Shown here piece after piece: positions 7,035 to 49,164 of a stretch of DNA of 64,000 bases. Source of the DNA: Planctomycetaceae bacterium (GTDB lineage Bacteria; Planctomycetota; Planctomycetia; Planctomycetales; Planctomycetaceae); contig JBKDUK010000416.1 in NCBI GenBank assembly GCA_046339535.1, forward strand, positions 26,834-90,833, in the 5' to 3' direction. Made by a program: the position numbers and the translations under genes. The notes below the pieces were generated by a model, which was given only the letters and a program-made list of their open reading frames with translations, had not been told where the DNA came from and ran no database searches. Position 1 is the first letter of the stretch; each line of letters opens with the position of its first letter.

Positions 7035-8708
7035 TCAGCCTTCCAATTCGACAATCAACAAATCGGCCAACGGGTGGGGAATGACAAGCTGACGGCTGTT
7101 GGCGAAGCAGACCGTCCAGGTCTCCTGTTGGATGTCCCGGTCTGTGACCTGCAACCTTCCCCCCAGCTCCAGGCTTAATCCCGCAATGCGCGCAGCCCCA
7201 GTCGGATGCGCGCCAGACGACGATTGCTCGGAGTTTGTCTCCAGGCCAACCAGAACTCCACGGTCGCCCACCCGCAACTGCGACAGGGGAAACCGCCCCG
7301 GCTGTCCGGGATCACTGGGGATCCGAGGAATCTGGGAACCATGCGGATCGGTTTCGGGATGACCGAGCACATCCTCCAGCCTGGCGAGCAATGCGTCATC
7401 CAGAAGGTGTTCAAGCTCCTCAGCCGAGGGATGAACGTGATCCAGCGGCAGCCCGACTTGTTGCACCAGATAGGCTTCCCAGAGACGATGCGCCCGATCG
7501 AGTCGGCGCGCCTCTTCCATCCCGCGCGGTGTCAGCCGTACCCCACGTGCACCGTCCCGCGTAATCCACCCTTTCCAACCCAGCTGCACCAACCAAAGTG
7601 TCACAGCCAGGCGAGAGCAGCCCAATTCTCCGGCCAGCTCATCGGGTCGAGAAGTCAAATCGGCTGAGCGGGACTGTGTTTTCAGCAGCAACCGCACCAG
7701 ATTCTCCTGGCGGGTTCGCAGCCGCAATCGACCGCGCCGCAATATTCTCCAAAATGCCCCCGATTCGGGGGCCCACAGAAAGGCAAGTCCAAACTGGGCG
7801 CAGGCCACCACCACCATCGTGGGTGCCGTGGTGACATTCAGCCAATCGGCAAGATGCAAGCCCACCACAGCGGAGACTCCCCCAGCGACAGAGGACCACC
7901 ACAACATCCCGGGAAGTCGTCGTGACATCAGGAATCCGGTCGCCGGAGGTGCGGTCAGCAATCCGACCACGAGGATCGCCCCAACCGAACTGAAGGCCCC
8001 CACGACGGTGGTTGCCAACGCCACCAGGAACGCCCCCTGCACCAGGGGAACCGAGAGCCCCATCGACCGGGCCAACTGAGGATCGAAACCTGTGACCAAC
8101 AGCGGGCGATAACAGGTCAGTAACAATCCCAACAACACCAGACAAACTCCCCCCCTCTGCCAGAGGGCCAGCGGAATTCCAAATCCGAACAGAAGGAACT
8201 TCTCTTCCAGGGGCACAAAATCGAGGTTGCCGTAGAGCGAGTGCTGGACGTCAATATGCAACCGCGGCACAAAGCTCGACAGCAGCACCACCCCCAGGGC
8301 GAACAACGTCGTGAAGACAATTCCTGTGGCGGCGTCGTTTTTGACTCGTGAGCCTCGCGACACCAACTGAATCATCAGAGCAGTCAAGACAGCGGTGAAG
8401 ACCGCCGCCAGTAACAACGTCCCGCTCCCCATGCTCCCGGTCCAGAGAACCGCGAGGACCAGCCCCAGCAGCACGGTATGACTCAGGGCATCCCCCAGCA
8501 GAGCCTGCCCCTGAAGAATCAGGAAACATCCCAGCCAGGAGCAAGAGAGGGAGACAAACAGACTCAGGGCGAGGATGCACAGCGTGTCATAACGTACGGT
8601 TTTGGACCAAAGCCCCTCCCGGGCACCGCCCAAGGCGGCCGCCAGCGAACTGCCGTAAGGGCCGGTCATCAGCGTCATCCCCTGCGCCAGCAACCAGTTT
8701 CCGAACAT
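7035..8708 (-). CDS. ABC-3 family metal (Mn/Zn/Fe) transporter permease fused to a C-terminal DtxR/MntR-family repressor (HTH + metal-binding/dimerisation + FeoA/SH3-like domain)
   Basis: 557 aa. Residues 1 to about 300 form a polytopic ABC-3 permease (LGDALSHTVLLG..., GAILVVGLLTAPPATGF). Residues from about 310 onward are a DtxR-like wHTH (ENLVRLLLKTQSRSADLTSRPDELAGELGCSRLAVT), then the metal-site block HRLWEAYL...HVHPSAEELEH...GHPETDPHGSQIP, then an FeoA-like tail (RVGDRGVLVGLE...GLSLELGGRLQV). Its start codon overlaps the stop of the next permease by 1 nt (8708/8709). Confidence 0.85.
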   Translation of the reverse strand: MFGNWLLAQGMTLMTGPYGSSLAAALGGAREGLWSKTVRYDTLCILALSLFVSLSCSWLGCFLILQGQALLGDALSHTVLLGLVLAVLWTGSMGSGTLLLAAVFTAVLTALMIQLVSRGSRVKNDAATGIVFTTLFALGVVLLSSFVPRLHIDVQHSLYGNLDFVPLEEKFLLFGFGIPLALWQRGGVCLVLLGLLLTCYRPLLVTGFDPQLARSMGLSVPLVQGAFLVALATTVVGAFSSVGAILVVGLLTAPPATGFLMSRRLPGMLWWSSVAGGVSAVVGLHLADWLNVTTAPTMVVVACAQFGLAFLWAPESGAFWRILRRGRLRLRTRQENLVRLLLKTQSRSADLTSRPDELAGELGCSRLAVTLWLVQLGWKGWITRDGARGVRLTPRGMEEARRLDRAHRLWEAYLVQQVGLPLDHVHPSAEELEHLLDDALLARLEDVLGHPETDPHGSQIPRIPSDPGQPGRFPLSQLRVGDRGVLVGLETNSEQSSSGAHPTGAARIAGLSLELGGRLQVTDRDIQQETWTVCFANSRQLVIPHPLADLLIVELEG

Positions 8709-9749
8709 TCAGGCCTCTCCTCCTGGCTGGTCCGTCACCACCGAGCTCCGCCAACGTCGCAGCAGAGCACGGAGGAGTCCGTAGCGCGGGGAGAACACCC
8801 ACGCCGCCAGAAACATCAACGCCAAAACCAGCACCACAGTCGGCCCCGTCGGAAGACTGGATGCCATTCGAAGAGGAGGCCATCCGAGGCCCAGAAGCCG
8901 ACTCCATCCCCCCAGCCAATTCCACCCCTGGACCAGTACCTCAGTGCTCAGGGAGCTTAGATTCAATCCTCCAAGGCCCCCCATGACTGCGACTGCGACC
9001 GCGATCCCCAACATCCGCGGCAGTCGATCGGTCAACAACAGGGCGGTCGCGGCAGGAGTGATCAGCAAGGCGGACAAGAGCACAACTCCCACGGCCTGAA
9101 TGGCAATCACAATTGCCATGGCGGTCAGCAACACCAGCAGGTAGTGGAGCCGCCGCACAGGCAACCCCAGCGCGCAGGCGAAACCCTCATCGAAACAAAA
9201 CACAGACCATTCCTTGAACAGCGACAGCACACACAGCACGATCATGGCCGTGACGCAGCCAATCAGCAGCAGGTCGACATCCCGCAGGGCGGCCGCCTGT
9301 CCGAAGAAGAACTGATTCAGACCTCCCTGTCCTCCTCGTGGATCGGACTGGATCCGTGACATCAACATCAATCCCGCACCGAAGAATCCCGAGAGCACCA
9401 ATCCCATCGCCACATCGGGTTTCAACCGGGTGCCGCGCTGGATCAGCGCAATCAACCCTCCGGCCACAAGAGCCGCCACAAGAGCTCCGGCGAACAGCCA
9501 GACGGGATGCTTGGTCCAGGTCACCATAAATCCCAGGCACAGGCCCGGCAGAACGGCATGCCCCAGGCTATCTCCCAACAACGACATCCGCCGGAGCACA
9601 ATCAGGCTGCCCAGCAATCCACAACTGATTCCCAGCAGCACCATTCCAACGGCCGCGGTTCGCACACTTCCATCCTGAAAACTCCAAAAGCGGAGCATCT
9701 CGGTCCCCAAAGAGGCCACGGATGGACAGTTCGCGGTGGGAGTGATCAT
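8709..9749 (-). CDS. ABC-3 family metal transporter permease (MntB/ZnuB/TroD-like)
   Basis: 346-aa polytopic membrane protein with ABC-3 blocks (LLGDSLGHAVLPG, LLITPAATALLLTDRL). Its stop overlaps the ATPase gene by 4 nt. Confidence 0.85.
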   Translation of the reverse strand: MITPTANCPSVASLGTEMLRFWSFQDGSVRTAAVGMVLLGISCGLLGSLIVLRRMSLLGDSLGHAVLPGLCLGFMVTWTKHPVWLFAGALVAALVAGGLIALIQRGTRLKPDVAMGLVLSGFFGAGLMLMSRIQSDPRGGQGGLNQFFFGQAAALRDVDLLLIGCVTAMIVLCVLSLFKEWSVFCFDEGFACALGLPVRRLHYLLVLLTAMAIVIAIQAVGVVLLSALLITPAATALLLTDRLPRMLGIAVAVAVMGGLGGLNLSSLSTEVLVQGWNWLGGWSRLLGLGWPPLRMASSLPTGPTVVLVLALMFLAAWVFSPRYGLLRALLRRWRSSVVTDQPGGEA

Positions 9750-10510
9750 CGCCGAATGACCGCCACCCGGTCGGCAGCTTCCGAGAGAATGGTCAGCCGC
9801 CCACCATAAGTCTGCTGCAGAAGCTCAGGGGTGAAGACCGAAGACGTTGGACCGCTCGCCACAAGCCTCATGTTCAACAGCAGAATCCGGTCGAAATACA
9901 CCGGAGCTGTCTGCAGATCGTGATGAACGACCACCACCGTACAGCCACGTTCCTTGAGTTGCCTCAACAGCCCCATGATGGCCGACTCGGTCGCAGCGTC
10001 GACCCCGACAAAGGGCTCATCCATGAAGTACACCCGGCTCTGTTGCGCCAGTGCCCGGGCAAGAAACACCCGCTGCCGCTCACCTCCCGAGAGATTGGAG
10101 ATCTGACGATTACGAAACGGCAACATGCCAACGTCTGCCAGGCATTGATCGGCAAGTTGACGTTCCGCCACCCCCGCGGACCGAAACCATCCCAGTCGGC
10201 CGTAAGTGCCCATCAGAACCACGTCCCGGACGGTGACGGGAAAGTCCCAGTCCACGCTTTCCCGCTGCGGAACATAGCCCACCGCCAAGCGTTGCCGGGC
10301 CAGCGGCTCACCAAAGAAACGCACCCAGCCACGATCGACCGGCAGCAATCCCAGGGCCGCCTTGATCAACGTGCTTTTGCCAGCACCGTTCGGACCAATC
10401 ACCCCCACCAGTTCGCCGGCAGGCAGCGAAACATCCACATTCCAGAGCACCGGCCGCTTGTCGTAGCTGACCGTCATGTCGTGGATTTCCACAGCCGGGC
10501 TGACGTTCAT
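9746..10510 (-). CDS. metal ABC transporter ATP-binding protein (MntA/ZnuC/TroB-like)
   Basis: 254 aa. Walker A GPNGAGKST, ABC signature LSGGERQR, Walker B VYFMDEPFVGVD, H-loop VVVVHHD. Confidence 0.9.
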   Translation of the reverse strand: MNVSPAVEIHDMTVSYDKRPVLWNVDVSLPAGELVGVIGPNGAGKSTLIKAALGLLPVDRGWVRFFGEPLARQRLAVGYVPQRESVDWDFPVTVRDVVLMGTYGRLGWFRSAGVAERQLADQCLADVGMLPFRNRQISNLSGGERQRVFLARALAQQSRVYFMDEPFVGVDAATESAIMGLLRQLKERGCTVVVVHHDLQTAPVYFDRILLLNMRLVASGPTSSVFTPELLQQTYGGRLTILSEAADRVAVIRR

Positions 10511-11361
10511 AAACGAGGCTCGCGAAGTGCATCGACAATCATGTCGACATTGTATCGGATCATGCCCCGATAGGTTCCCGCTGGCCCATCCGCAGCCCCC
10601 AGAGCGTCCGAATACAACTCAGAGCCGAGGCGAACACCAGAGTCCTGGGCCACCCGCTGGACCGCCGCGGGGGAGACACTCGACTCAGGAAAAATCGCCG
10701 GGACCTGGCGATCACGAATCAGATCCACACACTCGGCCAGTCGCCGCAGACCAGCCTCACTCTCGGTGCTGATCCCCTGGATTCCAAACACTTCAAACCC
10801 ATAGGCCCGGCCAAAGTACTGGAACGCATCATGACTGGTGATGAGGACCCGCCGTTCGGCAGGAACCTCGGCGACCCTTGTGCGGCAGTATTGATCGAGA
10901 ATCTCCAACTCCCCGAGATATTGGTCACCCCGGCGACGGAATCCCTCGGCTTCAGCAGGTGCCGCGGCAGCCAGGGTGTTGATGACGACCTCCGCCGCCA
11001 TTTTCCAGAGCCCCACATCAAACCACACATGGGGATCGGGTTGAGAGCCAGACTCAGCCCCCCCCAAGAGCCGGCCGGCGGGAATTGCCGAAGTGACCGC
11101 CACGACGGTTTTTTCGCGGGACAACGACTCGAATACTTCCACCAGCTTCCCTTCCAGGTGAAGTCCGTTGTAGAGCACCACATCGGCCTGCCGCAGCCGA
11201 CGCTGGTCACGCGTCGTCGGCTGGTAAAGATGGGGATCGACTCCCGGTCCCATCAGAACCGAAACTTCTCCGGCATCTCCCACAACAGCTTGTGCGATAT
11301 CGGCGATCATCCCCGTGGTGACCAGTACCGTGACTCCCGGTCCTTCCGAAGTGGGGTTCAC
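10507..11361 (-). CDS. metal ABC transporter substrate-binding protein (TroA/ZnuA/MntC cluster-9 family), mature domain only; its signal peptide lies upstream, separated by an in-frame TGA
   Basis: 284-aa ORF starting at GTG 11359-11361 directly with the mature domain (VTVLVTTGMIADIAQAVVGD...DPHLYQPT...DPHVWFD...HDAFQYFGRAYG). In the same frame, 11425..11383 encodes MRCCLILCLFVAGSG, followed by TGA at 11380-11382 and then GPDTAKV-NPTSEG... See findings. Confidence 0.8.
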   Translation of the reverse strand: MNPTSEGPGVTVLVTTGMIADIAQAVVGDAGEVSVLMGPGVDPHLYQPTTRDQRRLRQADVVLYNGLHLEGKLVEVFESLSREKTVVAVTSAIPAGRLLGGAESGSQPDPHVWFDVGLWKMAAEVVINTLAAAAPAEAEGFRRRGDQYLGELEILDQYCRTRVAEVPAERRVLITSHDAFQYFGRAYGFEVFGIQGISTESEAGLRRLAECVDLIRDRQVPAIFPESSVSPAAVQRVAQDSGVRLGSELYSDALGAADGPAGTYRGMIRYNVDMIVDALREPRL

Positions 11362-11567
11362 TTTCGCAGTATCCGGTCCTCAGCCTGATCCAGCCACGAA
11401 CAGGCAGAGAATCAGACAGCACCGCATTCGCCGGACGAGCCCGGATCGAAGTGGGCGTGGAATTGATTCATCAGGGGAAGATGTGCAACACTTCATGCTG
11501 CGATTCTCTCCCACCCAGCCCCACGTGTCAACTACACCCAAACATTTTTTTTGACTCCTCAAAATCT

Positions 11568-12314
11568 ATGGCTAGCCTGACCGTGGAGAACTACCTCAAG
11601 ACAATCCTCCAGCAATCCCTGGTCAGCGGTGGCGACCTCGTCACAACGGGGCAACTGGCAACTGCGTTGCGGGTCTCTCCCGGCACTGTCACCGCCATGC
11701 TGAAAACCTTATCCGAGGGGGGACTGGTGAAATACCGTCCGTATGAGGGTGTTACGCTCTCGCCAGCGGGACGCAAACTTGCCCTGAGGATGGTTCGCCG
11801 GCATCGTCTGCTCGAGAGCTTTCTGGTCCGAACTCTCAGCCTCACCTGGGATGAAGTGCACGAAGAGGCGGAAAACCTCGAACATGCGGTGAGTGACGTG
11901 TTGGTGGACCGAATCGATGATTTTCTCGGGCATCCGACCGTTGACCCGCATGGTGATCCGATTCCCGCCGCCGACGGCCTGATGCGTTGTCAGTTGCAGG
12001 AGGGAATCCCCATGACCGGGTGGAGCACGGACAGCCGCGTGCGTGTTGTCCGGGTGATCGACCAATCCTCCGATTTTCTGAGATACCTGGCCGAGCAAGG
12101 ATGCACGCTCGATACTGTTGCCGAAGTCAAGCAGAACTCACGCGAGGCGGGAATTGTCACTCTGAAGATCGGAGCCAACTCATTCTCACTGGGTTATCCC
12201 GCAGCCCACCAGATCCTGGCGGTCGCCTTCGATCCCGTGCGAGAATCGGCCAAAGGCAATCACGATCTGGAAGGAAAGCCCCAGAACGTTCGGCTGACCA
12301 CTCCCAGACGGTAG
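11568..12314 (+). CDS. DtxR/MntR-family metal-dependent transcriptional regulator with C-terminal FeoA/SH3-like domain (Mn-type metal site)
   Basis: ORF 11451..12314 trimmed to MASLTVENYLKTILQ... (248 aa). It has an HTH, then RRHRLLESFL...WDEVHEEAENLEH...GHPTVDPHGDPIP, where Glu replaces the Cys102-equivalent as in Mn-specific MntR-like members. An FeoA-like tail VRVVRVIDQ...GIVTLKIG follows. It is divergent from the metal ABC operon. Confidence 0.85.
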   Translation: MASLTVENYLKTILQQSLVSGGDLVTTGQLATALRVSPGTVTAMLKTLSEGGLVKYRPYEGVTLSPAGRKLALRMVRRHRLLESFLVRTLSLTWDEVHEEAENLEHAVSDVLVDRIDDFLGHPTVDPHGDPIPAADGLMRCQLQEGIPMTGWSTDSRVRVVRVIDQSSDFLRYLAEQGCTLDTVAEVKQNSREAGIVTLKIGANSFSLGYPAAHQILAVAFDPVRESAKGNHDLEGKPQNVRLTTPRR

Positions 12315-12412: not shown

Positions 12413-14089
12413 TTACTTCACCATGAAATCCGGGTAGCCGACAGTTCCCATCTCAGGCATATCCAGCCCGCCAACTTCATCCTCCTTCGAGACCCGAATC
12501 GGAGTGATGAGGTTGCTGATCTTGAACCACACCCAGCCCATGACGAATCCAAACAGGGCAACGGTAACACACGACAGGATCTGGGCAAACAATTGGGAGG
12601 CATCACCGAAGAAAAGTCCCCGGACGCCATCGGACCCGTATTTTTCCACGAACTCCGGACGCACGACACCGTTCCAGCCATGGCCATACTTTCCATTGGC
12701 GAACAGCCCCAGAGCCAGTGTTCCCCACAGTCCGTTGGCTCCATGCACCGAAACGGCTCCCACAGGGTCATCAAGACCAAACCGGTCCCAGAAGAAGACA
12801 CTCAATACCACCAGAACGCCCCCGACCGCGCCGATCAGCAAGGCAGCCCAACTGTCGATGAACGCACAGGGAGCGGTGACGGCCACCAGGCCCGCCAGCA
12901 TGCCATTGCAGATCATGGACGGATCAGGCTTCAGCCCGGTCATCATCAGATACACCATGCAGGAGATCGCCCCACCGACGCTCCCCAACATCGTGTTGAC
13001 GACCACTGTCGACATTCGCAGATCGGTTCCGGAAAGGGTGGATCCTGAGTTGAAGGCAAACCAGCCGAAAGCCAGGATGAACGTACCGGAAATCACGAAG
13101 GGAAGATTGTGCCCGGGAATCGCCTGGGGACGCCCATTCACAAATTTGCCAATGCGGGGACCGATGATCAATCCACCGGCCAGAGCAATCGCTCCGCCCA
13201 TCGCATGCACGACACTGGAGCCGGCAAAGTCAACGACACCGTGACCGAAGCCCCAGTTGAGTCCCGATTGAGCCAGCCATCCGCCGCCCCAAACCCAGTT
13301 GGCGAACAGACAGTAGGGAAGGGCCACCCACAGCGAGAAGAGACAGAAATTTTTCCACGCCCACCGCTCCGCCATGGTCCCGGTTGGAATGGTGGCTGTC
13401 GTGTCCATGAAGACCATCATGAAGAAAAACAGAGTCATGATCCCCACGTCATCCATCCCGCTCAGACAGAACCCCTTGGTTCCGAACAGGCCGTAAGCCT
13501 TTTCCCCAATGGTGAGGGCGAAACCGGAATTGAGCAGAGACGTTCCTGGGCCCATCGGTGAATACCACCCGGGAGCGACCGGAGCGTTGAACCAGTTCCC
13601 CCACCCCAAGGCGAATCCGTAGACGTAAAACGCCAGACAACCCAGGGGATAAACCATGAGATTCATGGCAAATGTATGAGCCGAATTCTTGGCCCGACAC
13701 AGCCCTCCTTCAACCAGAGCAAAGCCCGTTTGCATGAACATCACTAGGGCCCCGCACAGCAGGATCCACAACGTGTTGATCGAGAACATGTTGTGGGCAA
13801 TGCGGTCGTACAAATCAGCCGGAGACTTCTGGGCCGGATTATCGTCCCCCACAGGACCTGCCGAAGGTGCGATCCAGTAGCCCGAACTGGCCCCCACCGG
13901 ATCAGGCCAGAGTGGTTCCTCTGGCTTGGGGCTCACTCCCGTCATGTAAGGGGGAAGCGTCACGGCAGGAGCAGCAGCGGGAGGACTCGCTTCCGAGGCT
14001 CCCTCCTGTGCCACCAGCGGGCCGTTCCATAGAAACAAAACTCCCCACAGGGCACAGACACGCGACAGTCCTAGCCAGCGATGACTCAT
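12413..14089 (-). CDS. amtB: ammonium transporter (Amt/MEP family) with N-terminal signal peptide and about 100-aa Pro/Ala-rich extension
   Basis: ORF 12413..14353 trimmed to MSHRWLGLSRVCALWGVLFLWNGPLVAQE (signal). The Amt core runs from MFSINTLWILLCGALVMFMQTGFALVEGGL onward, with typical DFAGSSVVH and NGMLAGLVAVTAPC blocks. No glnK/PII gene is adjacent. Confidence 0.85.
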   Translation of the reverse strand: MSHRWLGLSRVCALWGVLFLWNGPLVAQEGASEASPPAAAPAVTLPPYMTGVSPKPEEPLWPDPVGASSGYWIAPSAGPVGDDNPAQKSPADLYDRIAHNMFSINTLWILLCGALVMFMQTGFALVEGGLCRAKNSAHTFAMNLMVYPLGCLAFYVYGFALGWGNWFNAPVAPGWYSPMGPGTSLLNSGFALTIGEKAYGLFGTKGFCLSGMDDVGIMTLFFFMMVFMDTTATIPTGTMAERWAWKNFCLFSLWVALPYCLFANWVWGGGWLAQSGLNWGFGHGVVDFAGSSVVHAMGGAIALAGGLIIGPRIGKFVNGRPQAIPGHNLPFVISGTFILAFGWFAFNSGSTLSGTDLRMSTVVVNTMLGSVGGAISCMVYLMMTGLKPDPSMICNGMLAGLVAVTAPCAFIDSWAALLIGAVGGVLVVLSVFFWDRFGLDDPVGAVSVHGANGLWGTLALGLFANGKYGHGWNGVVRPEFVEKYGSDGVRGLFFGDASQLFAQILSCVTVALFGFVMGWVWFKISNLITPIRVSKEDEVGGLDMPEMGTVGYPDFMVK

Positions 14090-14639
14090 GATCCGAGGAT
14101 GCTCTCGTCGAGGAACTGCCAAACTCGCGGGAGACATTTCCCAAACAGCGCGGACAAATTCAGTTGGGCCGTTGAAGCTGCAAGGCGAGTTGCGTTCCAA
14201 AGTCCAGAAATTCCCCGAAAACCCGATCGAGCCTATCGCAAGAGCCCAAAATTTCCGCAGATTGAAACTCTGGAAAGACCTCGCCTGGAGAAACCTGCCG
14301 AACCGAATTCTGAAACAGCCTGCGGAAGGAATAGGCAAATCCTGCTGACACATTAAACAACTGCTGACTTTTCAGACACGATCAGACCCGACAGAGGGCA
14401 CAGCCAGGCTTCTCCCGAGGGGCGAATCGTGAACAGGAAGCGTTCCGCTCTGACCCAGCCGGAAACGAATCGGAGGCAAAGGACGGGCACCGAGCCGATC
14501 CGCGATCTTGCGCAAGTCCAGCAGGAACACGTCCTGGGCGAATCGGCCTCGAGCACTCCTCCACCAAGACTTTTCCCCGGTCGGTCGGTAATTTATGGCA
14601 TAGGGCCGGGTTCCGGCTGACTCATCAAGAGACGATCCC

Positions 14640-17245: not shown

Positions 17246-18499
17246 ATGCCAGCCGAGACCATCGCCATCGGCACCGAACTCACCAGCGGTGCCAAACTCG
17301 ACACAAACAGCCAATGGCTGAGCCTGGAGCTGGCTGCGGCCGGAATTGCGGTTCACTATCACACGACGCTGGCCGACGACTTGCAGGCGAATATCAACGC
17401 CTTCCGGGTGGCGGTCGACCGGGCCGATTTGATCGTGATCACGGGAGGCCTGGGGCCTACCCTTGACGATCTGACCCGCGAGGCGTTGGCCCGGATGCTG
17501 GGGGTCGGTCTCGTCCTGCACGAGCCCTCTCTGGAGATCATCCGCGGCATGTTTGCCCGGCGGGGCCGGGAGATGCCCGAACGCAACGTCATTCAGGCAA
17601 TGTTTCCCCAGGGTTCCACCCCCATTCCGAACCCCCGTGGAACCGCCCCCGGAATCTGGCTCGAGATTCCCCGTGGAACGAGGCCTCCCTGCCTTGTTGC
17701 CGCCCTGCCGGGAGTCCCCAGTGAAATGAAACCCATGTTTCGGGAACAGATCCTGCCGAGACTGGGATCGCTGGCCACGGGACGGGTCATTCGCCATGCC
17801 CGACTCCAGTGTTTCGGGCTGGGAGAGTCTGCCGCCGAGGAACTGTTGGGAGACATCACGGCCCGAGGGCGGGATCCCGAGGTCGGAATAACAGTTCATG
17901 AAGCCACCATCACGCTGAGGATCGTTGCCGAAGCCCCCTCTCCAGACACCGCCCAGGACAAGATCCTCGCCACTCGACAGCAAATTCTCGAACGCCTCGG
18001 AGAGCACGTGTATGGCGAGGAAGAAGAAGAGCTCGAAGACATCGTCGTTCGGGAATTGCGTGCCCGCAGGAAGACCCTGGCGTCGTGCGAGGGAGCCTCG
18101 GGGGGCCTGGTGGCACGTCGGCTGCAGCGGATCGATCCGAACGGGGAGATTTATCGAGGCGGCTTGAGCGGTCTCTCAGGCGATGCACTCTCGTCGATCC
18201 TGGCGATATCCCCGTCGCAACTTCGGGAAACTGGTCCGCATGGTCCCGAGCGGGCTTCACAACTCGCCCTCGCGACTCGGGACAGACTCCAGGTCGACTA
18301 TGCGCTGGCCATCACGCCGAGATTACGATCCGCCGACCAGGAAGGGACCGTTGAAGTTCCGGTGGCCCACTATGCACTCGCCACCCCCCAAACGGTTGAG
18401 GTCCGGGAACTCAATCTGGTTGGAGATCCTGCGATTGCCCAGGCCCGCCTGACCAAGTCGGCACTCAATCTGCTGAGATTGCACCTGCGGAATTGCTGA
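17246..18499 (+). CDS. cinA: CinA-family competence/damage-inducible protein (MoCF-binding domain + C-terminal PncC-like deamidase domain)
   Basis: ORF 17204..18499 trimmed to MPAETIAIGTELTSG... It shows the typical CinA N-terminus IGTEL..G...D.N, LIVITGGLGPTLDDLT, and a C-terminal SCEGASGGLVARRL block. Confidence 0.85.
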   Translation: MPAETIAIGTELTSGAKLDTNSQWLSLELAAAGIAVHYHTTLADDLQANINAFRVAVDRADLIVITGGLGPTLDDLTREALARMLGVGLVLHEPSLEIIRGMFARRGREMPERNVIQAMFPQGSTPIPNPRGTAPGIWLEIPRGTRPPCLVAALPGVPSEMKPMFREQILPRLGSLATGRVIRHARLQCFGLGESAAEELLGDITARGRDPEVGITVHEATITLRIVAEAPSPDTAQDKILATRQQILERLGEHVYGEEEEELEDIVVRELRARRKTLASCEGASGGLVARRLQRIDPNGEIYRGGLSGLSGDALSSILAISPSQLRETGPHGPERASQLALATRDRLQVDYALAITPRLRSADQEGTVEVPVAHYALATPQTVEVRELNLVGDPAIAQARLTKSALNLLRLHLRNC

Positions 18500-36172: not shown

Positions 36173-36836
36173 AGTCTCCGGGAAACTCTGGGGTTCGACC
36201 CGGGTGGTAGCGTTTCGCAGCCGTTCCCGTCCCAGCAATTCGGGGTGTTCGGGAGCACAATGAATCCGGCGACCTGCCCCTCTGCCCCAGAGTCCAGGCC
36301 CGGAATGCATGCCCAACCACCACAGACAAATGGAGTTACGACAAATCAAAACAAATTGATCCACAAAATCGCGGGCTGTCTTGGTAAAATCTGGAGAGCA
36401 GCCGAGTCCCGGAGCTGAATCCGGGAGCGGGGGACCCAACGAATTCTCCCTTGGGGAGAGTTCTGGGGCGAAGATTGGCCACCAGGCGGGGGGAGAAATC
36501 CGCGCCAGAGGCCAGTCCGGGTGTCATTCAAGCCCGAGCCCGTCAGCTAACCTCGCAGGCTCGAACCACCATGGTGGTGGTTCAGATTGAATGGGCATTT
36601 CGTCTGCAATTCTCCACGACGCAGTGCCCTGTTGGTCAGTTTTGGCTTCACAGCGGTTCTGCACTGCGTCGCGCCGGCTTCCCCGGCGCCGATCTGGTTT
36701 CGCACAGTTAGACCCCTGCGGGTGGTCTCTGGCGGCATTCCTCTGCTCCCTGGCACTGCGAGCTCCCTCCGGGCGTCTCGCTGCGCCCTGAGCCGGGGTT
36801 CGCCCAACTGCGGTACCGCAGTGTCGCCGGAAAGGC

Positions 36837-39107
36837 ATGGCCATGTTCCTGGCTTTGTTTGTCCCGTCGGCTTCTGTATCGGCTCTCTTCTCCAGCTGGA
36901 ATCTCAGCGGGTGGATCTGGTGTCTGCTCATCTTCGCGTTGGGCTACCTGTTTTTGTGTGTGCGGTACATTCCCAACCATCGCGTGGGAGTTGTTGAGAA
37001 ACTCTGGTCAAACGCGGGATCCGTCCAGCAGGGAGGGATTCTGGCCCTCGATGGTGAAGCCGGCTTCGAGGCCGAACTGCTCCGTGGTGGGCTGCATTTC
37101 CATTACCCCCGCTGGCAGTATCGCATCCACTTCCATCCTCTGGTGACGATCCGCCAGGGACGGATTGGTTAGGTCTACGCCCGCGACGGCGAAGCGCTTC
37201 CCGCAGGGCAGACCTTGGCTCGCGTTGTGGAGTGCAACCACTTTCAGGATGCGCGTCGCTTCCTGACCGGTACGCCCGGAGAGCGGACTCCGTGCGGACA
37301 GCGCGGACGGCAACGGGCGATCCTGCGGGAAGGAGTCTACGCCATCAATCCCGCACTGTTTGTGGTCATTACCGAAGAAAAGGTGCATGCTCTGCGCAGT
37401 GGAATCCTCGACACCGAGTTCAGCCAGGTCCAGCAATGGGCCGAACTGCTGAAGTCGATGCGGGCCTTTCAGCCGGTGGTGGTGGGCGACACCATGACCG
37501 CCGCCGATCCCCTGCATCCCGAACAGGTCCACGAGGTCGACAGCATTGCGATTGTTACGGTGCATGACGGCCCCTCGCTCGAACCTGGCGCCATCATCGC
37601 CCCGCCGGTCGCAACCACACCGGGTGAGGAACATTACCACAACAACTTTCAGGACCCAGAAGCCTTCCTGGCTGCCGGCGGTCGGCGGGGGCGACAGTAT
37701 CAGCCGCTCACTGACGGTTCCTATTTCCTCAACCACTGGTTCGCCACGGTCCAAAAGATACCCAAGACGGTGGTGCCGATCGGCTATGTCGGGGTCGTGG
37801 TCAGCTATTACGGCAAAGCCGGGAAAGATCTCTCGGGGGTGAGTTTCCGCCATGGAGAACGGGTCTCGGAAGGCGAGCGGGGTGTCTGGGAGAGGCCCCT
37901 TGGACCGGGCAAATACGCCTTCAACACGTATGCGGGAAGCATTGTGCTGGTCCCGACAACCAACTTCGTCCTCCACTGGATCACCGGCAAGTCCGAGACA
38001 CACCGGTATGACGAAAGTCTTCGTTCCATCGACCTGGTCACCCGCGACGCCTACGAACCCCGTTTGCCGCTGTCGGTGGTGGTGCACATCGACTACCAAC
38101 GCGCTCCCAACGTCATTCAGCGGTTCGGAGATGTCAAAAAGCTGATCACGCAGACTCTGGACCCCATGCTGAGTGCCTATTTTCGCGATGTGGCCCACAA
38201 GAAGACCATGCTCGAACTGCTCCATGACCGGGATGCCATTCAACGGGAAGCCCGGGAAGAACTGCATCGCAAGTTCCATGAGTTCGACATGGAGTGCGTC
38301 GATGTGCTCATTGGCAAACCCGACGCCCAGGAGGGAGACACGAAAATCAACCAACTGCTCGAACAACTCCGCACCCGGCAGTTGTCCATCGAGCAACTCG
38401 AGACCTACGACCGTCAACGTGATGCCGCCGATCGACTGCGGATGTTGAACGAGGCGCAAGCCCAGGCCAACATGCAGACGCAGTTGACCAATGCCCGGGT
38501 CCAGATTGAGATTGTCGAAAACCAGGCGGCGGCCGAGTTGGCCAAATCGCGGAAGCAGGCCGAACAAGCCGCGGTCCACGCCGAAGGAGAACTCAACCGG
38601 GCCCGCAAACAAGCCGAGCAGGCCGTGGTCATGGCCGACGCCGAACTGCAGCGTGCCCGCCGTCAGGCTGACCAGACGGTCCTCATCGCCGAGGCCGACA
38701 GCCGCAGTACCATCCTCGCCGGGCGCGGCGAAGCCCAACGCGCCATGCAGATTGGTCTCGCGGAAGCGGCGGTCCTGCTGAAAAAGGTCTCGTCCTATGG
38801 CGATCCCCGGCTGTTCGCCCTGTCGTGTGTCTCGAAGAACCTCTCCGAGGCCACGCAACCGCTCGTCCCCGAACGGGTCTTCATGGCCCCCGGGGGAACC
38901 GCCGACGGGTCGGGAGCGAACGCCGCCTCGGGCCTGGTGGGGGTGTTGCTGAACCTGCTGATTGCCGAGAAATCAGGCTTCCAGCTCGTCGACGGCCCCG
39001 AGCAACAGCAACTCCGCGAACTGGCAGACAACCTCTCCCGTGAAGCGTTGGTGAACCTCCAGCATGGTGGATCGTCCCCTCAGACCAAAGAGATTCCCTC
39101 CGCGTGA
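36837..39107 (+). pseudogene. SPFH/band-7 (flotillin-like) membrane protein gene interrupted by a single in-frame TAG at 37170-37172 (fragments 36837..37172 and TTG-initiated 37215..39107)
   Basis: ORFs 36837..37172 and 37215..39107 are in the same frame. The read-through sequence is continuous: ...HFHPLVTIRQGRIG*VYARDGEALPAGQTLARVVECNHF. It has an N-terminal TM helix (LSGWIWCLLIFALGYLFLCV), an SPFH core, and a C-terminal coiled-coil region rich in Q/A/E/R (AELAKSRKQAEQAAVHAEGELNRARKQAEQA). Confidence 0.6.
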
Positions 39108-46734: not shown

Positions 46735-49164
46735 ATGTCTCACTCGACTTTCGTTACCGCTCTGGCCGGCTTTCTCGGTTGTTGGTTTTTCGGTGTCTCG
46801 GCTTTGGCCGCCCCGGACAAACCTCTCGATTTCACCCATGAAATCGTCCCCCTTCTGAGAAAACACTGCGCCAAGTGTCATACCGGTGCACGAAAACAGG
46901 GAGGTTTTTCATTTGATACGCGCCGCAGCCTCATTCAGGGGGGTGAATCGGGTGTGTCTGTCGCGGTCGGCGACTCTTCAAAAAGTCCTCTTGTCGAGCG
47001 GATCACCTCGCGGGATTCCGACCTGCAAATGCCTCCGGAAGGGCCACGGCTGACCGATGCCGAAGTTTCACTGATCCGTCGTTGGATCGACTCCGGGCTC
47101 CCTTGGGATGATGGATTCGCCTTTGCGAAAAGCAACTATGAAGCCCCTCTGCTGCCTCGCGAGGTGAAGCTTCCCGAAGCCAAACCGGGCCGCGACCATC
47201 CAATTGATCGACTGGTCGACGCCCATCCGAACCAACCCGCTCCCCGCGCCGGTATTTCCGATCGCGAGTTTGCCCGGCGTGTCTCGCTGGACCTGACCGG
47301 TTTACTCCCCACCCCGGAGCAACTGAAGGATTTTCTGGATCATCCTCCCCAAACCCGTCGTCAGCAGTTGATCGACAGTCTGCTCGACAACTCGATCGCT
47401 TATGCCGACCATTGGCTGACGTTCTGGAACGATATTCTGCGAAATGATTACACCGGAACCGGGTTTATCACCGGTGGCCGGAAGCAAATCACCTCCTGGC
47501 TGCATACCTCGCTGGTCGCCAACAAGCCTTACGACACAATGGTCAGGGAACTGATTTCCCCCACTCCGGAATCGGAGGGATTCATCCAGGGGATTCGCTG
47601 GCGGGGTGAGGTTTCAGCCAGTCAAACCAATGAAATCCAGTTTGCGCAGAGCATTTCCCAGGCATTTCTGGGCATCAACCTCAAGTGCGCCTCGTGTCAC
47701 GACAGTTTCATCGACCGCTGGAAACTGCAAGAAGCCTATGGGCTTGCAGCGATTTATGCCGATGCCCCGCTCCCGGTCTTTCGCTGCGACAAGCCAACGG
47801 GTGAAGTGGCCCAGCCTGTCTGGTTGTTCCCCGAGCTCGGACAGGTCGACCCGCAGGCCCCTAAAGCTGAGCGGCTCCGGCAACTCGCGAACCTGCTGAC
47901 CCACCCGCAAAATGGACGCCTGAGCCGGTCGATTGTCAACCGCCTCTGGCACCGACTGATGGGGCTGGGACTGGTCCATCCCGTCGATGCCCTGAACACC
48001 GAGCCCCGCGATTCGAATCTTCTCGATTACCTCGCCTGGGACTTCAGCCAGCACGGATACGATCTGAAGCACACCTTGCGATTGATCGCCACCTCGGCCA
48101 CCTACCAGCAGGAGATCCCTGCCGACAGCTCCCCCGAGGGTGAGAATTGGCAGGACCTCAGCCCGATTCCCCGACGAATGACGGCGGAGCAGTTCGTCGA
48201 CGCCGTCTGGCAACTGACCGGCAGTCATCCTGCCAAGGCCGACGCGGTTGTGACCCGGCGGGTGGCCCCTGGCAATCCGGGCTCCCGGCCACAGGCCCGG
48301 TGGATCTGGACAAACGATCAGAAACAGTCGGCCTCTCCCGGCGGAGAGACGGCCACTTTCGAAGTGTCATTCAAACTGCCCGTTCTACCCCAGGACGCCG
48401 CAATCGCCCTGACCTGCGACAATGACTATGTCCTGTTCGTCAACGGTCGCCGCATTGCCGCCGATGCAAACTGGGAGACTGTCGAAGTCGTCTCACCAGT
48501 CGATTTCTTGCGGGCGGGAGACAACACGCTTCGCATTGTGGCCAAAAACGGGGGCGAAGGCCCCAATCCCGCCGGACTGCTGGTGGTGGGACAGATCCGC
48601 ATTCCCGGCCAGCCGTTGATCACCATCACCACGGGGCCCGACTGGCGCTGGACGCGGAGGGTTCCCGATGGCGAGGGAGAATTCTCTGCCGACCCGCAAG
48701 ATTGGGCACCAGCCGTTACCTTGGCCGAACCCACCGTCTGGTCGGGCAGGATCGGCGATGCGCCGTCGCAAGCGTTGGAAGAGGCGCTCGACCCACAACG
48801 GGCCCGGGTTCGGGCCGCTCTGGTCAAGGCGGATGAACTGATGCGGGCTTTGGGAAGGCCCAACCGAGATCAAATTGTGACCAGCCGGCCCACTCAGTTC
48901 ACCACGCTGGAGGCCCTGGAACTGGCCAATGGCGATGCCCTGAAAGCAATGCTCGAGGCGGGCGCACAGCGTCTTGCCAGGCGTTTCGCCGAACGTCCGG
49001 CCGAACTGGTCGACTGGTTGTACACCTTTGGCACGTCCCATCCCCCCAGTGACCACACCCGGGAAGCCGCGCTCCAGTTCCTGGGGAAGAACCCGCAGGC
49101 CCCCGACGTGGAAGATCTGTTGTGGTCATTGGTGCTGCAACCCGAGTTTCTCCACGTTCGCTGA
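46735..49164 (+). CDS. planctomycete cytochrome C (PSCyt) - DUF1549 - DUF1553 domain protein
   Basis: 809 aa with a signal peptide. FTHEIVPLLRKHCAKCHTG (haem CxxCH), DUF1549 block (RRVSLDLTGLLPTPEQLKDF), and CASCHDSFIDRW of DUF1553. Confidence 0.85.
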   Translation: MSHSTFVTALAGFLGCWFFGVSALAAPDKPLDFTHEIVPLLRKHCAKCHTGARKQGGFSFDTRRSLIQGGESGVSVAVGDSSKSPLVERITSRDSDLQMPPEGPRLTDAEVSLIRRWIDSGLPWDDGFAFAKSNYEAPLLPREVKLPEAKPGRDHPIDRLVDAHPNQPAPRAGISDREFARRVSLDLTGLLPTPEQLKDFLDHPPQTRRQQLIDSLLDNSIAYADHWLTFWNDILRNDYTGTGFITGGRKQITSWLHTSLVANKPYDTMVRELISPTPESEGFIQGIRWRGEVSASQTNEIQFAQSISQAFLGINLKCASCHDSFIDRWKLQEAYGLAAIYADAPLPVFRCDKPTGEVAQPVWLFPELGQVDPQAPKAERLRQLANLLTHPQNGRLSRSIVNRLWHRLMGLGLVHPVDALNTEPRDSNLLDYLAWDFSQHGYDLKHTLRLIATSATYQQEIPADSSPEGENWQDLSPIPRRMTAEQFVDAVWQLTGSHPAKADAVVTRRVAPGNPGSRPQARWIWTNDQKQSASPGGETATFEVSFKLPVLPQDAAIALTCDNDYVLFVNGRRIAADANWETVEVVSPVDFLRAGDNTLRIVAKNGGEGPNPAGLLVVGQIRIPGQPLITITTGPDWRWTRRVPDGEGEFSADPQDWAPAVTLAEPTVWSGRIGDAPSQALEEALDPQRARVRAALVKADELMRALGRPNRDQIVTSRPTQFTTLEALELANGDALKAMLEAGAQRLARRFAERPAELVDWLYTFGTSHPPSDHTREAALQFLGKNPQAPDVEDLLWSLVLQPEFLHVR

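Follow-up and report, generated by a model that had tools for sequence, protein, structure and literature searches.

A TGA codon stands in frame at the lipobox cysteine position of a TroA/ZnuA-type metal-binding protein gene in the window, as we call the whole 64-kb stretch of planctomycete DNA analysed here. Among the assemblies compared, only this one has the TGA allele, and the differences peculiar to it have an unnatural spectrum. We consider it quite likely that the TGA is a base-call or assembly error in one MAG and that the gene is that of an ordinary TroA-type metal-binding lipoprotein. The original prediction had offered three readings: an assembly or base-call error, a recent nonsense mutation, and a recoding event. 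We favour the first, the second is the remaining rival, and the third did not hold up.

An in-frame TGA at the lipobox cysteine codon

The codon, the gene that contains it and the neighbouring genes are arranged as follows.

11380..11382, minus strand: in-frame TGA at the lipobox Cys position; the A at 11380 (T on the plus strand) is private to the assembly
11383..11496, minus strand: signal-peptide coding region MKCCTSSPDESIPRPLRSGLVRRMRCCLILCLFVAGSG, with the probable start ATG at 11496..11494; the ATG at 11427..11425 is not conserved
10507..11379, minus strand: mature TroA/ZnuA-type domain, a linker of ~17 residues followed by PF01297, intact
9746..10510, minus strand: ABC transporter ATP-binding subunit (TroB/MntA-like), intact
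8709..9749, minus strand: ABC-3 permease (TroC-like), intact
7035..8708, minus strand: ABC-3 permease fused to a C-terminal DtxR/MntR-like domain (PF00950 and PF02742), with a private difference at 8155 (M185R)
11568..12314, plus strand: DtxR/MntR-family metal-dependent repressor, divergent (PF01325, PF02742, PF04023)

On the minus strand the frame runs ATG (11427..11425) CGG TGC TGT CTG ATT CTC TGC CTG TTC GTG GCT GGA TCA GGC (11385..11383) and continues TGA (11382..11380) GGA CCG GAT ACT GCG AAA GTG (11363..11361). The translation across the stop is MRCCLILCLFVAGSG*GPDTAKV, after which the frame is open to 10507. The TGA directly follows a signal-peptide-like stretch and is followed in frame by the TroA/ZnuA-type metal-binding domain. 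An in-frame TGA at the lipobox Cys of a TroA-like binding protein is what had been predicted, and the window sequence and the Cys of the relatives both agree with it; the span given, 11380-11427, is correct, although 11425 had been taken as the first base of the ATG and is its last. The GTG at 11361, named in the prediction as the first possible restart, begins the longest ORF after the stop, which the ORF list gives as 284 aa. TGA differs from TGC by one transversion, C to A on the coding strand and G to T on the plus strand at 11380, and this single-base difference, also proposed beforehand, was seen in direct comparison with six other contigs.

The gene belongs to a Tro/Mnt-like operon

The domain downstream of the TGA matches the Pfam ZnuA profile PF01297 over positions 1-263 of 263 (E=1e-78), with the match beginning 18 residues past the TGA. 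The closest solved structure is T. pallidum TroA (1TOA, E=4e-70), with which the DPH, DPH, SHD and YSD ligand motifs align; we take the DPH, DPH, (S/A)HD and (Y/F)SD motifs to be the His/His/His/Asp metal ligands of TroA. The full-length domain, the metal-ligand motifs and the operon context all indicate membership in the ZnuA/TroA family, and the lipobox Cys, which is a TGA in the window as written, is present in the other assemblies and in the relatives inspected.

The binding-protein gene heads the operon, with the same gene order in relatives, and its stop, a TGA at 10509..10507, overlaps the ATG of the ATPase gene. The arrangement resembles Treponema pallidum troABCDR, with a binding protein, an ATPase, two ABC-3 permeases and a DtxR-family regulator in the same order, and the likeness to TroA extends to an N-terminal lipoprotein signal with Cys in relatives of the window protein. 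There are also differences: the lipobox Cys codon reads TGA in this assembly, the n-region of the signal peptide is unusually long, the lipobox is of the form G-x-G-C instead of L-A/S-G-C, and the second permease is fused to a DtxR-like domain while a second DtxR/MntR gene lies divergent. Mn, Zn or Fe are putative substrates, and the matches to the AztC/MntC-type NCBIfam equivalogs are all below cut-off. The permease-DtxR fusion (PF02742, 7035-8708) is conserved in L004, L085 and L100, besides the separate divergent MntR-like repressor, and may be a membrane-tethered metal sensor.

The aligned codon is TGC in other assemblies and in a sister lineage

A homologue search with the Cys-restored protein as query returned a 99%-identical 306-aa protein and a graded series from Planctomycetaceae. 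All full-length relatives inspected, with identities between 99% and 58%, have a Cys aligned with the TGA, and the placement of the TGA is therefore not a chance alignment. The lipobox motifs are ...AGSGC, LGLGC and MGPGC in close relatives and LAGC or LSGC at ~58-64% identity. At the DNA level, the codon is TGC in L001, L085/L087, L086, L089, L090 and the sister L100; the assemblies with TGC are ENA ERZ27247987 and ERZ27248034, JGI 3300042691 and 3300031963, Logan SRR7687104 and, for the sister lineage, SRR23086389. Comparison with close relatives, which had been proposed as a check, thus gave TGC in all five same-population assemblies and in the ~99% sister, and the stop allele that would mark a true pseudogene was found in none of these independent assemblies. 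Judged from these sequences, the ancestral codon is TGC (Cys). The truncated 284-aa product is represented in its 90% cluster by only one NCBI MAG protein, MFN9374608.1, which is identical to the window ORF and presumably comes from the same MAG.

Short homologues of 265-285 aa (P0008, P0089, P0120 and others) were considered as cases of a recurrent lipobox stop and rejected, as their upstream frames are intact and carry LAGC/GPGC lipoboxes; contig ends or the choice of start codon account for the short calls. The 267-aa call P0122, on a JGI contig, was likewise rejected as independent support for the TGA, the DNA there reading TGC. An exact-pattern scan of a metagenome contig collection that lacks these samples gave 0 matches for either allele, and the nearest species representative in a genome-contig scan (GTDB), Planctomycetaceae UBA10511, is only 69% identical.

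The precursor probably starts at an upstream ATG

The start at 11427 with an 'MR n-region', as first described, is probably wrong, and a conserved start lies 69 nt upstream. Where the window has the inner ATG (11427..11425), the sister lineage L100 reads ATA (Ile), and P0126 and P0127, both of 329 aa and starting MKCRTSS, have Ile instead of the inner Met. The upstream ATG at 11496 (MKCCTSSPDES...) is conserved as MKC/MQC-R/C-TS in relatives to ~70% identity, the MKC/MQC start being kept in P0004, P0007, P0009, P0010 and L005. Because of the ATA in L100 and the conservation of the upstream ATG, the inner ATG is unlikely to be the start. The alignment suggests that translation probably begins at ATG 11496..11494, which would give a precursor of 329 aa with a 38-residue signal peptide and a long Arg-rich n-region.

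The conserved extension MKC(C/R)TS.P... at 11428-11496 (minus strand) is what makes the n-region unusually long, and the lipobox Cys is residue 39 here, whereas more distant relatives have it at residue ~53-60. Judged by eye, the start lies in an imperfect palindrome (GAAGTGTTGCACATCTTC), which could overlap the operator of the repressor; a repeat search of the intergenic region for inverted repeats that might serve as operator returned none.

Private substitutions across the contig

Same-population assemblies were retrieved via neighbouring window proteins (ENA ERZ27247987, ERZ27248034 and ERZ27247978; JGI 3300042691, 3300032050, 3300031963, 3300032093 and 3300032116; and Logan runs) and cover 55.2 kb of the 64-kb window. 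These other assemblies of a freshwater Planctomycetaceae population are near-clonal, with 0-8 private differences each over 55 kb. In the 55 kb compared, with the tract at 17760-17812 left aside, the window has 13 private substitutions, of which those in the binding-protein gene are numbered from the ATG at 11427.

8155: M185R, polarised by only one other assembly
11340: T29P
11349: A26S
11362: N22K
11380: C16*, the TGA
14121: outside assigned genes
25304: K474T
37172: Y112* (TAG)
41795: outside assigned genes
48144: D470E, polarised by only one other assembly
49915: G219C
52910: outside assigned genes
59731: E169A

All 13 are transversions, 10 of them A<->C or G<->T and the other three C<->G or A<->T. 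Every one of the 10 private changes in assigned genes alters the protein, two of them through premature stops. As a natural baseline we used the sister L100 (SRR23086389) against the population consensus, which gave 107 differences at 11,987 sites, with 65 transitions vs 42 transversions (61% transitions) and 68 synonymous vs 26 non-synonymous changes (72% synonymous). The private set differs from this baseline both in spectrum (Fisher, P=1.7e-5) and in coding effect (P=1e-5). Two features of the private set are set out separately.

11340..11380: four private transversions within 41 nt, at 11340, 11349, 11362 and 11380
37170..37172, plus strand: private premature stop TAG for TAT (Tyr112) in the 756-aa Band_7/SPFH gene at 36837-39107

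Given the rate of isolated private differences, the probability of four in 41 nt anywhere in the compared sequence is ~4e-6, and so the four changes are not independent. The Band_7 gene is intact in four other assemblies, all of which have T at 37172, and the private transversion behind its TAG is of the same class as that behind the TGA; on account of this stop, the window ORF list shows only a 630-aa remnant of the 756-aa gene. The private D470E change similarly explains why an exact look-up of the 809-aa gene at 46735-49164 found no match.

The tract that was left aside, 53 nt at 17760-17812 (plus strand) in a cinA-like gene (17246-18499), carries 10 substitutions relative to five other assemblies. 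In the ungapped alignment, nine of the 10 are synonymous and one is R/K, and they are mostly transitions. The pattern suggests natural mosaicism, whether from a short segment imported by recombination or from strains joined into a chimera during assembly, and its contrast with the private scatter means that real variation can be told apart from that scatter within the same contig.

Two observations concern neighbouring genes. The ammonium-transporter gene at 12413-14353 (minus strand) is a 646-aa ORF with a long upstream in-frame extension and is called as 479 or 558 aa in other assemblies, the private substitution at 14121 lying in this N-terminal or leader part, whose extent is uncertain. 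At 36390-36576 on the plus strand, 260 nt upstream of the Band_7/SPFH gene, Rfam identifies a c-di-AMP (ydaO-type) riboswitch (RF00379, 61 bits); genes of this type are not known to be among the targets of the riboswitch class.

Sequencing or assembly error as the probable source of the private differences

A>C and G>T are the leading substitution errors of Illumina sequencing, since one laser channel serves A and C and the other G and T, and errors become about ten times as frequent toward the ends of reads (Dohm et al. 2008, PMC2532726). The private differences resemble such miscalls in that A<->C and G<->T dominate, the cluster has the size of a read end, only one assembly shows the changes and they fall without regard to codon position. 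The likeness is incomplete, however, as C<->G and A<->T account for three of the 13 changes and Illumina may not be the platform of this MAG. From the private allele, the lack of transitions, the blindness to codon position and the read-end-sized cluster, we infer that the cause of the private differences is most probably sequencing or assembly and not biology.

An error of this kind would be a G-to-T miscall on the plus strand within a 41-nt stretch holding four errors, where a single low-quality read end may have carried the assembly, and the TGA would belong to the scatter of miscall-type transversions over the contig. The real codon would then be TGC. By analogy with the family, the precursor, probably of 329 aa from ATG 11496, would be exported, the Cys of the ...AGSG-C lipobox would be lipid-modified and the precursor would be cut by signal peptidase II. 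The mature protein, tethered via a short variable linker, would deliver Mn, Zn or Fe to the permeases of what would be a Tro/Mnt-like ABC importer with a cluster A-I binding protein. Several considerations count against an error. Two of the 13 sites (8155 and 48144) are polarised by a single other assembly, and oxidative mutagenesis in vivo gives a similar transversion spectrum. Assemblers usually require k-mers to be seen more than once, and four errors in a row therefore imply unusually thin or poor coverage. In addition, the sister lineage also differs at site 11349, where it has yet another base, which means that the linker tolerates real change.

The remaining rival, an unlikely though credible one in our judgment, holds that the TGA is real, very recent and private to the sampled genotype. 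The precursor would be truncated at the lipobox, and a restart at GTG 11361 would yield a cytoplasmic, useless binding protein, so that Tro/Mnt-type uptake would be inactivated; the clustered four would be one multi-nucleotide event, for example from error-prone repair, and the all-transversion scatter would stem from oxidative or mutator-type mutagenesis. Consistent with this, the TGA is present in the deposited sequence and the annotated 284-aa product agrees with it. Oxidative mutagenesis through 8-oxoG in vivo gives G:C>T:A plus A:T>C:G, and 10 of the 13 private changes are in these classes. The changes also appear unselected (all non-synonymous, two stops), as for very young mutations, and the linker region varies naturally among strains. 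Against it, neither the sister lineage nor any of five other assemblies of the clonal population carries the allele, and the operon has no other decay, being identical to the population contigs (the ATPase gene at 9746..10510 over the compared region) except for the private missense change at 8155 (M185R), which is of the same transversion class. Moreover, the MAG is a population consensus and would have to contain 13 unselected mutations with no transition, no synonymous change and two knock-outs of conserved genes; as the population is otherwise invariant across samples, fixation of 13 such changes is unlikely. If the TGA were real, it would mean only the loss of a metal importer by one genotype, and no recoding question would be opened.

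The cluster at 11340-11380 could also be read as targeted hypermutation of the linker, by a diversity-generating retroelement (DGR) or something similar, with the stop as a by-product. There are indeed four non-synonymous changes in 41 nt of a surface-exposed linker, and neighbouring strains vary in the linker, with three alleles at one site, yet we regard this explanation as extremely improbable. DGR-like mutagenesis was rejected because C, T, G and A were all among the template bases that changed, which is not adenine-specific mutagenesis, and because the matching contigs have no annotated reverse transcriptase in the vicinity of the gene. Furthermore, isolated transversions of identical type are scattered over the whole contig, and the linker differences between other strains are ordinary single changes.

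Recoding of the TGA as selenocysteine is very improbable

Selenoprotein genes usually first come to notice through a TGA at a position where homologues have Cys, a feature that the window shares with bacterial selenoproteins. Recoding as selenocysteine via a downstream SECIS hairpin, or low-level readthrough, would allow a full-length exported protein to be made, and a hairpin does have its apical loop ~21 nt downstream of the UGA. Complete Sec machinery occurs in some Planctomycetes (PMC4807772), and phylogeny alone therefore does not exclude selenocysteine.

The remaining evidence leaves this reading of the TGA with almost no probability. No full-length protein inspected and no DNA locus examined has a TGA at the position, although a selenoprotein gene would be expected to show its UGA in orthologues too. 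As the downstream sequence is nearly unchanged in the 99.9%-identical population, where the codon is TGC, no SECIS can have evolved here. We folded the 81 nt and the 60 nt downstream, compared the TGC allele and ran an Rfam E-value scan. The folding was no better than that of shuffled sequences (z=0.01 for 81 nt and -0.27 for 60 nt; 76 of 200 shuffles equalled or surpassed it), and the scan of the downstream sequence gave nothing relevant, only noise. G/U is typical of bacterial SECIS loops, and the hairpin loop, AACCC, is without the G/U of this consensus. Known selenoproteins are mostly redox enzymes, but the Cys here is the lipid-attachment residue and not a redox residue. A private change of the same class and origin creates the TAG at 37170-37172, which cannot encode selenocysteine. 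No Sec-machinery Pfam families were found among the genes called on the matching contigs, and neither tRNA genes nor other Sec genes were found in the 64-kb window. An alternative genetic code was rejected, as TGA ends 38 of the 46 ORFs of at least 300 aa in the window, the binding-protein gene included. The recoding offered in the original prediction thus fails on several counts: no relative has the TGA, the hairpin folds no better than shuffled sequence, a second private stop is a TAG, and TGA is the normal stop here.

A further version, in which the organism does carry the TGA and tolerates it, either by inserting Sec or another residue at the lipobox or with the importer switched off by an oxidative burst of clustered mutagenesis, we find scarcely believable. 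If true, the switched-off importer would show mutator-driven gene loss caught in progress in a clonal planctomycete from freshwater. To our knowledge, no selenocysteine occurs at a lipoprotein lipidation site, and for this reason only the recoding version would be truly new.

Consequences for annotation

We suggest that the contig be taken as a quality flag: it has at least two premature stops (TGA at 11380-11382 and TAG at 37170-37172) and about ten missense changes, all of which are probably absent from the organism. The public annotation of a signal-less 284-aa 'solute-binding protein' is a result of the TGA at 11380-11382. Elsewhere in the family, at L003, L004 and L085 (P0089, P0120 and P0122), callers often start at an internal Met (MIAD... 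or MLATTG...) with an intact signal peptide and lipobox upstream of the called start, and such starts leave many database entries of the binding-protein family without an export signal for annotation reasons only.
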